The notes under the pieces: generated by a model
Seen by the model: only the letters and a program-made list of their open reading frames with translations
The model's database searches: none
Told to the model about the DNA's origin: nothing
Translations under genes and position numbers: made by a program
Shown: one piece after another, positions 37,799 through 41,513 of the stretch
How the letters are laid out: every line of letters begins with the position of its first letter
Numbering within the stretch: the first letter of the stretch is position 1
DNA from: Patescibacteria group bacterium
Lineage (GTDB): Bacteria > Patescibacteriota > Minisyncoccia > Minisyncoccales > JANBVM01
Assembly (NCBI GenBank): GCA_024238995.1
Contig: JANBVL010000001.1
Span: 10,059 to 74,058, forward strand
Direction of reading: 5' to 3'
DNA length: 64,000 bases

Positions 37799-37869
37799 TG
37801 CGGGGTCGTCCAATGGTAAGACAACGGCCTTTGAAGCCGTATATCCAGGTTCGAATCCTGGCCCCGCAA
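37799..37869 (+). tRNA. tRNA-Gln (anticodon UUG)
   Basis: Acceptor TGCGGGG/CCCCGCA (U1-A72 as in bacterial tRNA-Gln), anticodon stem ACGGC/GCCGT with loop CTTTGAA, T-arm CCAGGTTCGAATCCTGG. Confidence 0.85.
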
Positions 37870-37911
37870 CATTTTATGTTTTGTATATATTTAGATGAAA
37901 TTATATAGAAT

Positions 37912-37933
37912 CCGAACTTTTGTTCGGGTTTTT
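37912..37933 (+). terminator. rho-independent terminator after tRNA-Gln
   Basis: ccgaac-tttt-gttcgg followed by gttttt. Confidence 0.6.
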
Positions 37934-38048
37934 AATTTTGTTAAAAATCGTAAAAAATCATTTGATAAAAATATAGAAAAAAGATAGATTAAAATAATAT
38001 GAAATTAAAAACTTTAAAGAAAAAATTAAGAAGAGAATTTAGAAAATT

Positions 38049-39629
38049 ATGAAAATTAGAAAAGTAAGGCTCAAAAATTTTAAGAGATTTGACGATCTTA
38101 CGATCGATTTGGGTGATAATCCGAAGAAAATTGTTGCTTTAGTTGGGCCTAATGGTTGTGGAAAAAGTAGCATCTTTGATGCATTTGAGGAGAAGCTAAA
38201 AAATTACAAAGGCGCTCATAGGAATCCTCCTCCGAATTTTTTTTCTAAGCTGTATTATTCAATTCTCCCTGATAAAAAGTCAGAGGCATACAATAGAAAT
38301 GAGGCAGTGCAGATAGAAAATAATGAAGGGAGAGAATTCGACAAAAAGAGTTTTTATGTTCGTTCGCCATATAGGTTTACACCCAGCTTGAATGTAACAA
38401 GTATCACGTCTCAGCCAGATGCTCTTGAGGATGTATCACGTCCAGGAAGTAGTATAGACATAGATGGTAGACTCAAAGAAAACTACGAAAGACTCCTTGG
38501 ACAGGCGTGGAATGAGTATCAATATGGGAGTAAATCAGGCCCGAAGATGCGAGCGAAACTTTTAGGGCACATTAACGACATAATTTCCAAAATACTAGAT
38601 ATTAGAATTTCAAACCTTGGAGATGTGATTGGTGGGAAAGGACAGTTATATTTCGAGAAAGAATCGTCGAAAGACTTTCCTTTTGAAAATCTTTCATCTG
38701 GAGAAAAAGAGGTAGTCGATATAATTATTGATTTAGTGGTCAAAACTCCAACATACAACGACACGGTTTTTTGTATAGATGAACCAGAGCTCCACTTAAA
38801 TACTGCGATTCAGCGAAAGCTTCTTATTGAAGTAGAAAAGTTAATACCAGATACCTGTCAGCTTTGGGTAGCAACACATAGCGTGGGCTTTCTCAGAGCT
38901 CTACAGGAAGAGTTGAGAGAGAAATCGCAAGTGTTAGATTTTTCAAGGCATGATTACTTTAATAAAATACAGAAAATCGAACCCATCAGAATGACTAGAG
39001 GCGACTGGCGGAGAATTTTTCAAACAGCGTTGGAAGATATAACTGGCTTAGTCTCACCAAGAGTGATTATTTACTGTGAGGGCAAACCACAACCTAACGA
39101 TTCAGGCGAAGAGCAAGGACTGGATGCACTTGTTTATAATCAAATATTTGAAGAAAAACTTCATGATGTTTTGTTTATTTCTAGTGGGGGCACTGACGTA
39201 AGCAGTAATCTTTCATTGGCATTAGCTATTTTGAGTAAGGCATTCAATGGTGTAAATATAATGCAACTAAGAGACAGAGATGGATTATCTGATACAAAAA
39301 GGAAGGATTTTTTAGATAAAGATTCCCACAGGAGAATACTGCTTAGACGTGAAATAGAAAATTACTTATTTGATAAGGAGGTTCTGAAACTATTTTGCCT
39401 AGCAAGGAATGTAACCTTTAATGAGCATAAATATGATAGTGTTGTAGATGGTGTTGAATTGCAAGATTTAAAACCCATCCAACAAAAAATCAAAGAAGTC
39501 TGTTCTTTCAAGGGTAATATAGAAGAATTTAAGCTCAAGTTAACGGGGTTTGTCCTTCCAAAAACAAATATCTATAAAGAATTAAAGGAGTGTATTTTCT
39601 TACCAAAAGAAAAGAAGCAAATAAGTTAA
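38049..39629 (+). CDS. ABC/SMC-type ATPase fused to C-terminal DUF4435/Toprim-like domain (fused AriA-AriB / AbiL / OLD-like architecture)
   Basis: MKIRKVRLKNFKRFDDL..., Walker A GPNGCGKSS, signature LSSGEKE, Walker B FCIDEPELHLN and H-loop WVATHS. The C-terminal part carries VIIYCEGKPQ, LRDRDGL and RREIENYLF. Confidence 0.65.
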   Translation: MKIRKVRLKNFKRFDDLTIDLGDNPKKIVALVGPNGCGKSSIFDAFEEKLKNYKGAHRNPPPNFFSKLYYSILPDKKSEAYNRNEAVQIENNEGREFDKKSFYVRSPYRFTPSLNVTSITSQPDALEDVSRPGSSIDIDGRLKENYERLLGQAWNEYQYGSKSGPKMRAKLLGHINDIISKILDIRISNLGDVIGGKGQLYFEKESSKDFPFENLSSGEKEVVDIIIDLVVKTPTYNDTVFCIDEPELHLNTAIQRKLLIEVEKLIPDTCQLWVATHSVGFLRALQEELREKSQVLDFSRHDYFNKIQKIEPIRMTRGDWRRIFQTALEDITGLVSPRVIIYCEGKPQPNDSGEEQGLDALVYNQIFEEKLHDVLFISSGGTDVSSNLSLALAILSKAFNGVNIMQLRDRDGLSDTKRKDFLDKDSHRRILLRREIENYLFDKEVLKLFCLARNVTFNEHKYDSVVDGVELQDLKPIQQKIKEVCSFKGNIEEFKLKLTGFVLPKTNIYKELKECIFLPKEKKQIS

Positions 39630-39645
39630 AAGAGTTTTTAAAAAA

Positions 39646-40422
39646 ATGAAAAAAATCAGTGCATTAGCACAACTTTTTGCTAAATATAAAATCTATCCCA
39701 AAAGTTGTTACAATGATTGTTCGCCTGTAAGGGTTTTTCAAAGAATGTTTCCTAAGAATCATTACAGTAAAGACTTAGAAATATTTCTTTCGTATCAAGA
39801 CTATAAACCTACTCAAAGAGGTGCGGATTTACCTTGGTGGGGTAAAAGTTTCTTTTTGAGAAGTCCTGGCTTCAGAACACTAATAATTGGCCAAGATTCC
39901 ATATATAAGGATGCGGGTAGCATAGTTTTAGCTGCAGAGTTTTTTCCCAACGTCAGTCAGGAAAAATATCAGGAATTTATTGATAGAATGAAAGTAAATA
40001 GATATTTTGGGTTTAATAAATGGAAAAGAGTAAAGGATCAACTTATCGATTGGGGAATAGATTTTGATTTTTTATATATGACTGATGCATCAAAGGTTTA
40101 TAAAGAAGGATCTTGGAAGGATTGGGATTTTGATAGGAAAAAAAGTAGGGAAGTACTGAGAAATGAAATAGAACTCTGTAACCCAGACTTAATTATTCTT
40201 TTGGGAACTTCTCCGTTATACCTTTTAGATAACACTATAAATTACGCATCAACTGTTGAAGCCAGAAAGCCTATTTTAGTTCTAAAAAGAAGTTGTGTGG
40301 TTGCTCCCTTTTTTCTTGGAAATGGTTGCACTCAACCAAATTTTAGAAAGAGATTAGACATAGCAACAAATTTAATTAGATATGAGCTTGAAGAAGATTT
40401 AATTAAATTAGTTAAATTATGA
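39646..40422 (+). CDS. uracil-DNA-glycosylase-superfamily-like protein (function unknown)
   Basis: TLIIGQDSIYKD (compare the UNG GQDPYH motif), LYMTDASKVYK and CNPDLIILLGTSP. 258 aa. Assignment is by motif resemblance only. Confidence 0.4.
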   Translation: MKKISALAQLFAKYKIYPKSCYNDCSPVRVFQRMFPKNHYSKDLEIFLSYQDYKPTQRGADLPWWGKSFFLRSPGFRTLIIGQDSIYKDAGSIVLAAEFFPNVSQEKYQEFIDRMKVNRYFGFNKWKRVKDQLIDWGIDFDFLYMTDASKVYKEGSWKDWDFDRKKSREVLRNEIELCNPDLIILLGTSPLYLLDNTINYASTVEARKPILVLKRSCVVAPFFLGNGCTQPNFRKRLDIATNLIRYELEEDLIKLVKL

Positions 40423-41438
40423 ATATAGATAAAAACATTCACAAAGAAACTCAAGAAATAGATAAAAAATTAAGGGGTTATCTAAATATAAAAGATCTGT
40501 GCATGTACCCAGATCATTCTTCGTGTTCCGGACCAATAATTAGATGTCACTCTATTCAAAATAGTAGATCTTTAGATTCTATATCTAAAAATGGACATGT
40601 TCTTAGTTTTGTTCTATTAAGTCTTTTTGAGCTAGAAAAGAACAAAGGAGTCATTGAACTTAAAAAAGTTAGTAAAAATAAAGTTACTACATTTTTTGGT
40701 TTTTGCCAAAAGCATGATTCTGAGTTATTCAAGCCAATAGAATTATTTGACTATAAAGGAGAAGAAATCCAAAATTTTTTATTTGCTTATCGAGCCCTCT
40801 CAAAAGAGGTATATGTTAGAATTAATATGTTAAAAGCTATGCAAGAATTTTCCGGCCACCCATTTATGGAAAAAAATATATATGATTTATTTATGTTAGG
40901 ATTTCGTGCGGGCACTAGAGATTTAGTAGGACATAAAGCACTTTTTGATAATAGCTTAATGGAAAAAAATTATGGAGATGTTATGTCTTATAGGATAAGT
41001 ACTAATTTAAAGCCAAATATTCTAGTATCTTCAATTTTTTATCCAGAATATACTGTTAATGGCCTATCTATTCAAAATTTAGCAGATATATCTAGATTCA
41101 AAGAAGGAATACAAATTACTATTTTTCCGAATAGAGGAACGACAGAGATATTATTTACTTGGCACAAAAATAAAAGTCAGGCACCGGAAATATTAATCGG
41201 TTCGATTGATAAACTTAACGAGGAGGAAAAGCTTGAAACTATTACACAAATGATTTTTTCTCATTGCGAAAACATAGTGGTTTCCCCTGAATGGTGGGAA
41301 AATATTTCCAGCGATAGAAAGAAGAAATTAATAGAAACCTTTAACGAATCGATGGATATTAGAACCGAAAGAAAGCCTGATTATTTAACGCCACACGGGT
41401 TTAACATATTTAGCAAACCAGCACGAGGCTGGAATTAG
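40419..41438 (+). CDS. uncharacterised protein with N-terminal Cys/His motifs
   Basis: 339 aa with LCMYPDHSSCSGPIIRCHSIQN and FFGFCQKHDSELFKPIE. The start overlaps the upstream stop (ATGA). No family recognised. Confidence 0.6.
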   Translation: MNIDKNIHKETQEIDKKLRGYLNIKDLCMYPDHSSCSGPIIRCHSIQNSRSLDSISKNGHVLSFVLLSLFELEKNKGVIELKKVSKNKVTTFFGFCQKHDSELFKPIELFDYKGEEIQNFLFAYRALSKEVYVRINMLKAMQEFSGHPFMEKNIYDLFMLGFRAGTRDLVGHKALFDNSLMEKNYGDVMSYRISTNLKPNILVSSIFYPEYTVNGLSIQNLADISRFKEGIQITIFPNRGTTEILFTWHKNKSQAPEILIGSIDKLNEEEKLETITQMIFSHCENIVVSPEWWENISSDRKKKLIETFNESMDIRTERKPDYLTPHGFNIFSKPARGWN

Positions 41439-41513
41439 TTTTTTGATGAGACGCTAACGGGTTCTTAATTTGAGAAAGATGAAAATCAATGCTCTTTAAA
41501 GAAAGTTTTTAAT

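Follow-up and report, generated by a model that had tools for sequence, protein, structure and literature searches.

Glycosylases that defend bacteria against phages (Brig1, Brig2, Brig3 and Dag1/2) are a very recent class, of which few families are known. Brig1, the first anti-phage glycosylase to be described, belongs to the uracil-DNA glycosylase (UDG) superfamily and excises alpha-glucosyl-hydroxymethylcytosine (alpha-glucosyl-hmC; PMC11078745); protection against T-even phages is a further mark of its family. Its nearest solved structure is a family-4 enzyme, 4ZBY from Sulfolobus tokodaii; Glu147 replaces the base-reading Asn, and the changes E147A and E147Q abolish defence (PMC11078745). 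Brig2 is a UDG-like defence enzyme that acts against phages carrying 5-(2-aminoethyl)uridine and related thymidine modifications (bioRxiv 10.1101/2025.10.29.685425); it has <20% identity to Brig1 and has been reported mainly from Pseudomonadota. Here we describe geneB, a candidate member of this functional class from a Patescibacteria group bacterium. The gene lies at 39646..40422 (plus strand, stop codon included) of a 64,000-nucleotide stretch of contig JANBVL010000001.1; we refer to this whole stretch as the window, and positions are counted from its first letter. As judged from the open reading frame (ORF), its homologues, an AlphaFold2 model, Foldseek searches and the dN/dS ratio, geneB encodes a 258-amino-acid protein of the UDG superfamily. 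Because Brig3 has an AAG fold and the Dag enzymes reportedly belong with the helix-hairpin-helix-type glycosylases, neither is related to geneB by fold.

geneB is a real gene, and purifying selection acts on it: 87 homologues were found at E<=1e-3 (the nearest is 91% identical), its start codon is in line with their N-termini, and its dN/dS is 0.25–0.29 when measured against three homologues of 64–90% identity. An earlier note on this DNA had called the ORF at these positions and quoted several strings from it; all of them (RTLIIGQDSIYKDAGS, FLYMTDASKVY and ELCNPDLIILLGTSP) are found in the translation, and HPSPLS, which the note reported as missing, is indeed not there.

Taken by itself, geneB scores 14.8 bits (E 0.031) against the Pfam UDG profile PF03167, whose gathering score is 24.3 bits, and it has no match in NCBIfam, PADLOC or PHROGs. 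Its family is matched more firmly: 36 of the 41 aligned members hit PF03167 (best 1.5e-7), and six homologues pass the gathering score (24.7–32.0 bits), with the domain covering approximately residues 71–235. A search of the PDB with the family profile returned 27 significant matches, every one of which is UdgX or a family-4 UDG (E ~1e-3). The AlphaFold2 model of geneB has a predicted local distance difference test score (pLDDT) of 93.5 and a predicted template modelling score (pTM) of 0.91. When this model was compared with the PDB by Foldseek, only UDG-superfamily folds were present among the matches listed: UdgX came first (4e-6, TM ~0.5), followed by the family-4 UDGs of Thermotoga, Thermus and Sulfolobus (1e-4 to 1e-3), and, at lower ranks, by MUG (2e-3), TDG, one family-1 UNG (rank 43) and SMUG1. 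UdgX and family-4 UDGs account for the 34 matches at E<=1e-3. In the viral library BFVD, the top fold matches are mostly phage family-4-like UDGs and UDG-like domains fused to phage PolA. We conclude that the product of geneB has a UDG-superfamily fold, with three alpha/beta/alpha layers and a parallel sheet, and that this resemblance is far above chance. It stands closest to family 4 and UdgX rather than to family 1; the QD doublet of motif 1 is its only family-1-like part. The Foldseek result thus bears out the UDG fold that had been proposed from weak motif similarity. So does the predicted order of strand 143–147, helix 164–178 and strand 182–186, which matches the beta-alpha-beta arrangement that the earlier note had read from the LYMTDASK region.

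The residues conserved in the family were counted in the 41-member alignment. A wider alignment, A3 (36 members), joins geneB with two sister clades taken from the weak tail of the profile search (proteins P0156–P0239). Of these 36 members, 34 match Pfam UDG (best 1.2e-13), and the A3 profile aligns with the UDGa of Thermus thermophilus (1UI0) at 2.8e-7, unbroken from motif 1 to motif 2, and with the S. tokodaii UDG (4ZBX) at 5.2e-7. The pocket of the T. thermophilus enzyme is made by E41, G42, E47, F54, N80 and H155; N80 forms bidentate hydrogen bonds to N3 and O4 of uracil, and H155 stabilises the uracilate leaving group (PMC5387724). In HMMER alignments to 1UI0 and 4ZBX, Q83 of geneB corresponds to E41, D84 to G42, D147 to N80 (N82 in S. 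tokodaii) and L224 to H155, while P221 corresponds to the Pro located three residues ahead of H155.

Strand beta1 and motif 1 of geneB, T78-L-I-I-G-Q83-D84-S85...A90-G-S92, are encoded at 39877..39921 (plus strand, as are all of the motifs below). Q83 and S92 occur in 41/41 members and D84 and S85 in 40/41; G82 is variable (S/G/A). The QD doublet aligns both with E41-G42 of the T. thermophilus enzyme and with the QD of family-1 UNG. These two doublets are known to be correlated alternatives, EG in family 4 and QD in family 1, and swapping EG for QD keeps the enzyme active (PMC5387724). What follows the doublet in geneB is S-x-x in place of P-Y-H. Of the likeness to the family-1 loop GQDPYH that had been suggested, then, the QD doublet stands; the P-Y-H is missing, and the scaffold around it is family-4-like.

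The base-reading position lies at the end of beta2, F-L-Y144-M-T146-D147-A-S-K150-V-Y152 (40072..40101). This segment aligns to YVTNAVK of UdgX, VYITNIVKC of 1UI0 and FITN82VVKC of 4ZBX, and D147 stands in for the uracil-reading Asn of those enzymes (T. thermophilus N80, S. tokodaii N82, Escherichia coli N123). T146, D147 and K150 are each present in 41/41 members, and the sister clades, too, carry D147 without exception. Strand beta3, C178-N-P-D-L-I-I-L-L-G187 (40177..40206), aligns to IELIAPQIIVPLG of 1UI0 and is present in the AlphaFold2 model. It is followed by beta4 and motif 2, C217-V-V-A-P221-F222-F-L224-G225-N-G227 (40294..40326), identified from the alignments and the conservation counts. 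Here L224 takes the position of the catalytic His (T. thermophilus H155); the family has I, T, S, V or L at this place and never His. E174, P221, F222, G225 and G227 are also invariant or nearly so. Cys occurs in at least 50% of the members at three columns only (21, 178 and 217), with C178 alone near-invariant, and there is therefore no four-Cys Fe-S site.

Two further conserved segments lie outside these strands. The best-conserved N-terminal motif, R58-G-A-D-L-P-W-W-G66 (39817..39843), includes D61 and P63, which do not vary even in the distant sister clades. The model places a short strand at residues 62 and 64–65, and the motif probably corresponds to the short strand before beta1 in family-4 UDGs. 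Between beta2 and the next helix is a conserved acidic loop, S156-W-K-D-W-D-F-D163...S167 (40111..40146), which falls at the place of the KRRIH loop of UdgX and the N89 loop of family 4, in an alignment of low posterior probability. Altogether, the conserved residues fall in the three active-site loops of UDGs: after beta1, at the end of beta2 and after beta4. The earlier note had conceded that its idea would fail if these residues mapped away from the pocket; they align instead with the loops that form the pocket in 1UI0 and 4ZBX.

The sister clades, whose proteins have ~250–310 amino acids, vary the same motifs. The first has G-x-D-L-P-x-W, G(I/Q)DPLR, YLTDxYK and an HLSG motif 2, and the second has a family-4-like F-E-G-S as its motif 1; both keep the base-reading Asp. 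Together, they make up a broader UDG clade that has no name and is almost confined to metagenomes.

How does geneB compare with the described enzymes? Family-4 UDGs (1UI0, 4ZBX and the Thermotoga maritima structures 1L9G/1VK2) are its best relatives by sequence profile and strong relatives by fold. The two have in common the Y-I-T-x-x-x-K of beta2, the P-x-(I/L)-I-x-x-L-G of beta3 and the Pro three residues before the catalytic position of motif 2. However, geneB is without the 4Fe-4S cysteines, has QD for the EG of GE[GA]PG and Asp147 for Asn80, and lacks an equivalent of His155; it also carries some 75 more N-terminal residues, including RGADLPWWG, and it is rare and mobile, whereas family 4 is a core repair gene. 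UdgX of Mycobacterium smegmatis, a covalently cross-linking enzyme, is the top match of geneB both by hidden Markov model (HMM; E ~1e-3) and by Foldseek, and each has a long loop after beta2. In contrast to UdgX, geneB has no GEQPG, no KRRIH loop with His109, no motif-2 His from HPSS and no Fe-S cluster. With the Fe-S cysteines, the EG doublet, the Asn, the His and the KRRIH loop all missing, membership in family 4 or UdgX is ruled out. Family-1 UNG shares motif 1's QD doublet, and the natural Asn-to-Asp change of geneB parallels a mutation, N123D, that enables the E. coli enzyme to excise cytosine (PMC3989344). Membership in family 1 is nonetheless ruled out: HPSPLS and its His are lacking, position 147 is always Asp, and no family-1 sequence matches the family profile. 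That geneB is not a housekeeping ung, as had been stated at the outset, is supported.

Among defence enzymes, Brig1 and geneB are both single-gene UDG-superfamily proteins of ~260 amino acids that occur in defence islands, have a family-4 enzyme as their nearest structure and carry an acidic residue in place of the base-reading Asn. To the eye, the P-x-P-(W/Y)-x-G of Brig1, ~15 residues before beta1, resembles the DLPWWG of geneB. The two differ in motif 1 (GLNPG in Brig1, QDS in geneB) and in beta2 (LNFELYPWHS vs. YITDAxKVY), and Brig1 is found mainly in Actinobacteria, whereas the geneB family is found in Patescibacteria and Bacillota. Brig2, by its published description, resembles geneB in having a UDG-like fold, in standing alone and in lying near mobile genetic elements (MGEs) and defence genes.

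We give an even chance to the reading that we prefer, namely that geneB is an active, monofunctional, stand-alone anti-phage glycosylase whose substrate is a modified base other than uracil, probably of cytosine type. A non-uracil substrate, probably cytosine-type or amino-bearing, is suggested because of the precedents of N123D and of Glu147 in Brig1, because of the putative water-activating Asp and because the leaving-group His has been lost. In such an enzyme, a family-4-like scaffold would have shed its Fe-S cluster, and the base would be flipped into a pocket made by the loops that follow beta1, beta2 and beta4. Within the QD doublet, Asp84 would position or activate the attacking water. 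Asp147 would read, and possibly protonate, a base whose face offers an amino group or an N3 acceptor, at the place where the Asn of uracil UDGs reads N3-H/O4. Instead of uracil, the enzyme would act on a non-canonical base, cytosine-type or otherwise amino-bearing; since normal cytosine is impossible as a target in vivo, a modified base absent from the DNA of the host would be the logical choice. Excision of such a base from phage DNA would leave abasic sites, and geneB would constitute a single-gene defence that works in the mode of Brig1 and Brig2 but is of independent origin. The idea of a defence glycosylase was already put forward in the earlier note, and it is plausible in light of Brig1 (PMC11078745), Brig2 (bioRxiv 10.1101/2025.10.29.685425) and the defence-rich neighbourhoods described below.

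Several observations weigh against this assignment. The missing motif-2 His could mean that catalytic activity is low or absent. Asp147 could equally read the N1-H/N2-H2 face of a guanine-type base, and the class of base is thus not fixed. The presumed geometry of the pocket, including the roles of W64/W65 and of the 156–163 loop, is drawn from alignments alone. Housekeeping or repair genes (HSP70, MreB, AddAB, xseAB, NUDIX and Ham1) are present at several loci, and the richness of the neighbourhoods in defence genes and MGEs is a qualitative judgement made without a background control. Finally, similarity to Brig1 was not significant. The Brig1 sequence was taken from the supplement of PMC11078745, its numbering was verified, 52 homologues were gathered, and a 32-sequence profile (A4) was built; hhalign gave E 0.78 for the geneB-family profile (A1) vs. 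Brig1, 0.38 for A1 vs. A4 and 0.59 for A3 vs. A4. By these profile comparisons, the geneB family is an analogue of Brig1 and not a member of its family.

It is possible, though on the doubtful side, that the family is a natural cytosine-type glycosylase family independent of Brig1, serving as a one-gene anti-phage system of the candidate phyla radiation (CPR)/Patescibacteria and Bacillota, and that with its sister clades (GxDPLR/HLSG and FEGS) it makes up a new non-uracil UDG family. If the proposed function is correct, the Asn-to-Asp switch for reading cytosine-type bases arose repeatedly, and immunity based on glycosylases reaches into CPR/Patescibacteria, about whose phages and DNA modifications almost nothing is known. 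The family could also supply a compact natural enzyme for deaminase-free base editing or for the mapping of modified bases. The cytosine-DNA-glycosylase change N204D of human UNG is reportedly mentioned in two papers of 2024 about base editing with the engineered enzyme.

In the window, geneB stands second in a closely packed row of three genes between tRNA-Gln, which comes after dnaX, and the convergent obg. The tRNA-Gln(UUG) gene (37799..37870, plus strand; found by ARAGORN) forms the left edge of this variable slot. geneA (38049..39629, plus strand) encodes a 526-amino-acid ABC/OLD-type ATPase, recognised by Pfam (AAA_21, AAA_15) and PADLOC, and ends 16 nt before geneB. geneC (40419..41438, plus strand) encodes a 339-amino-acid orphan protein, and a 4-nt overlap (ATGA) joins its start to the stop of geneB. 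The best defence model for geneA is the fused AriAB of PARIS (2.8e-33), followed by PtuA (both PADLOC), and its PDB matches are retron PtuA and OLD. The C-terminus of this ATPase had been labelled DUF4435. That label found no support: neither Pfam nor a PDB sequence search found DUF4435 or Toprim in the C-terminal ~200 amino acids, and only the fused AriAB model of PADLOC matched. By eye, the C-terminus contains Toprim-like YCEGK and RDRDG motifs. A GC-containing hairpin with a T run (gaatccgaacttttgttcgggttttt) occurs at 37910-37935, directly after tRNA-Gln, and resembles a tRNA terminator; if it is one, the three genes would have their own promoter in 37936-38048. Probably, then, geneB is co-transcribed in this genome with the AriAB-like ATPase and geneC, without depending on either.

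The neighbourhoods of its homologues speak to that independence. With tblastn, relatives of geneA or geneC were found at 0/37 geneB-homologue loci, and all-against-all clustering of the 456 neighbouring ORFs from these 37 loci gave no recurring neighbour family except in near-identical contigs. At the loci of geneC homologues, no UDG gene stands beside them. A conserved operon is ruled out by the tblastn and clustering results, and the geneA-B-C arrangement is unique to the window genome. The 91%-identical homologue (locus L038) sits between a PycTM gene and xseA, on a contig that also has Z1, a fusion of LexA/S24 with a methylase, HNH and GIY-YIG genes. Another homologue is accompanied by a ParB-methylase, S24, DUF5677, HNH_5, HEPN_AbiU2 and SocA, and the one at L001 by a type II restriction-modification (R-M) system, UvrD/AddB, PDDEXK, NUDIX, Ham1 and a DNA_alkylation repair gene; further neighbours are DUF4365 and a type I R-M system with a shufflon integrase. 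Over all of the loci, we also noted HTH_3, IS21 IstB, phage integrases, ResIII, Fic, M78 and AEP-TOTE, together with the defence genes DrmD, NERD-UvrD, mREase_IV, SoFic and PD-Lambda-2.

Three Patescibacteria contigs with a geneB homologue share one further feature: a ParB_N-N6_N4 methyltransferase followed by LexA/Peptidase_S24, upstream of variable defence-type genes (L004:1430-3730, L043:1-1935 and L038:1308-2690, the last being a single LexA-S24-methyltransferase fusion). Possibly, this pair anchors a hot spot as a second conserved element.

When 1.84 billion representative proteins were searched exhaustively with an HMM, 173 matched the geneB family at E<=1e-3, 57 of them at E<=1e-30. Loci of the family are present in 32 of 185,579 species genomes, with a patchy distribution over Patescibacteria, Bacillota, an archaeon and Ignavibacteria. 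Homologues from different phyla are 40–50% identical, which points to recent transfer. No copies on phages or plasmids were found in IMG/VR, GenBank phages or PLSDB, and an origin from either has no support in these databases or in PHROGs. Some homologues are split, frameshifted or truncated (L024:10001-10743, L026:3735-4503, L036:10094-10636, L037:2074-2492 and L029:10001-10417), and one disrupted copy resides in the complete Candidatus Nealsonbacteria chromosome CP179889.1; the occurrence of such copies in several genomes marks geneB as a dispensable accessory gene. We conclude that the geneB family is rare, horizontally mobile and distinct. Two of its members, P0013 (L043:7001-8311) and P0041 (L009:741-2006), bear differing C-terminal extensions of ~170–190 amino acids without Pfam matches, which could be real fusions or the result of missed stop codons.

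These data also bear on other explanations of geneB. The gene might be a horizontally acquired repair glycosylase, a UDG or base-excision-repair enzyme of genome-reduced Patescibacteria and some Bacillota that removes uracil or a deaminated, oxidised or alkylated base. The UDG fold with its intact water-activating QD doublet would suit such a role, as would the repair and sanitation genes found nearby at L001 (UvrD/AddB, PDDEXK, NUDIX, Ham1, DNA_alkylation), L038 (xseA/xseB) and L044 (AddAB); moreover, the 64-kb window has no second UDG-like ORF, and NCBI names some of the homologues “uracil-DNA glycosylase family protein”. But a gene found in 32/185,579 species genomes, with 57 strong clusters, is too rare and patchy for housekeeping. 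It lacks synteny, and its copies can be split, one of them in a complete Nealsonbacteria genome. The cross-phylum identity speaks for recent transfer, the cargo of the slot differs in close relatives, and neither the uracil-reading Asn nor the leaving-group His is retained. We therefore consider a repair function, the main competing explanation, rather unlikely, yet not negligible. A role as an accessory to host DNA methylation or modification, in which geneB, together with neighbouring methyltransferases, would remove a misplaced or foreign methylated base (e.g., N4-methylcytosine or 5-methylcytosine) instead of targeting phages, appears improbable to us. N6_N4_Mtase genes do lie within 8 kb of the homologues at L001, L004, L038 and L043, and an Asp at the base-reading position is suited to cytosine-type bases. 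Those methyltransferases, however, vary in architecture (ParB-fused, LexA/S24-fused, part of a type II R-M system), are neither adjacent nor conserved, and belong to a kind that is itself common on MGEs and in defence islands; the cassette in the window has none.

The UDG-like protein could instead be a catalytically dead DNA-binding protein, or one that traps DNA covalently as UdgX does, by way of an acidic residue of the 156–163 loop. UdgX is the top match by both profile and fold, the motif-2 His is absent, and the S156...D163 loop aligns with KRRIH such that D163 stands opposite H109, albeit with low confidence; the PDB entry 6L6S indicates that the H109E mutant of UdgX still cross-links. 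Set against this are the low posterior probability of that loop alignment and the absence of every UdgX hallmark (GEQPG, KRRIH, HPSS and the Fe-S cysteines). The invariant QD doublet and D147 favour a working active site, and the inactive UDG-like domains fused to phage PolA are merely equally distant fold matches. We judge an inert or trapping protein to be unlikely. The earlier note had suggested yet another role for geneB: to confer on the adjacent ATPase-nuclease the recognition of modified or uracil-containing invader DNA. In this model it would be the specificity or sensor subunit of a three-gene system. Such a system would be in keeping with the close packing of the genes (the 16-nt gap and the 4-nt ATGA overlap), with co-transcription, which is likely given that the terminator-like hairpin follows the tRNA only, and with the fit of geneA to the fused PARIS AriAB model. 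Tight packing in one genome can simply mean that independent modules have built up in a hot spot beside a tRNA gene. PARIS and PtuA-type ATPases are known to function without a glycosylase. The note proposed looking for ATPase genes alongside geneB relatives in other genomes, and none was seen at the 37 loci; there is no recurring neighbour, homologues of 91% and 83% identity lie in unrelated contexts, and geneC homologues do without a UDG neighbour. By this missing co-occurrence the three-gene model is largely refuted, and we accord it only a very slight probability.

The slot that holds geneB has been filled differently in other genomes. At 38 metagenomic loci whose obg is 45–93% identical to that of the window (most >=69%), geneA, geneB and geneC were found in 0/38. 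One of the loci, L059, is closely related (obg 90%, dnaX 84% and tRNA-Gln 96% identical) and has other cargo in the same tRNA-Gln/obg slot (L059:7926-12197): a C5 (Dcm-type) cytosine methyltransferase, a GHKL (HATPase_c_3) protein of 727 amino acids and a weak HEPN/receiver-like protein. Defence-type cargo is thus swapped in and out of the interval from tRNA-Gln to obg (37871-41513), and the three genes of the window are best viewed as independent modules. A search for a duplicated tRNA-Gln 3'-end att site or a direct repeat flanking the island in the window found none. In another relative (L047), the slot holds genes for a cyclophilin, a pair of GT4 glycosyltransferases, a HAD nucleotidase and a HIT protein.

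geneC has no match in Pfam, PADLOC, NCBIfam or PHROG and has 12 homologues only. Its AlphaFold2 model (pLDDT 84.8, pTM 0.87) has no fold match in the PDB (best E 0.25). F92, C96, H99, D100, F104, R125 and E284 are invariant, and C28, C36, H44, Q47 and H60 nearly so; this set looks like a Zn site with an HSIQ/CxxHD signature. Some of the homologues bear an N-terminal SEC-C motif, and they adjoin a nucleotidyltransferase (NTase)/HEPN pair or an HNH gene or, in Bacillus, stand alone.

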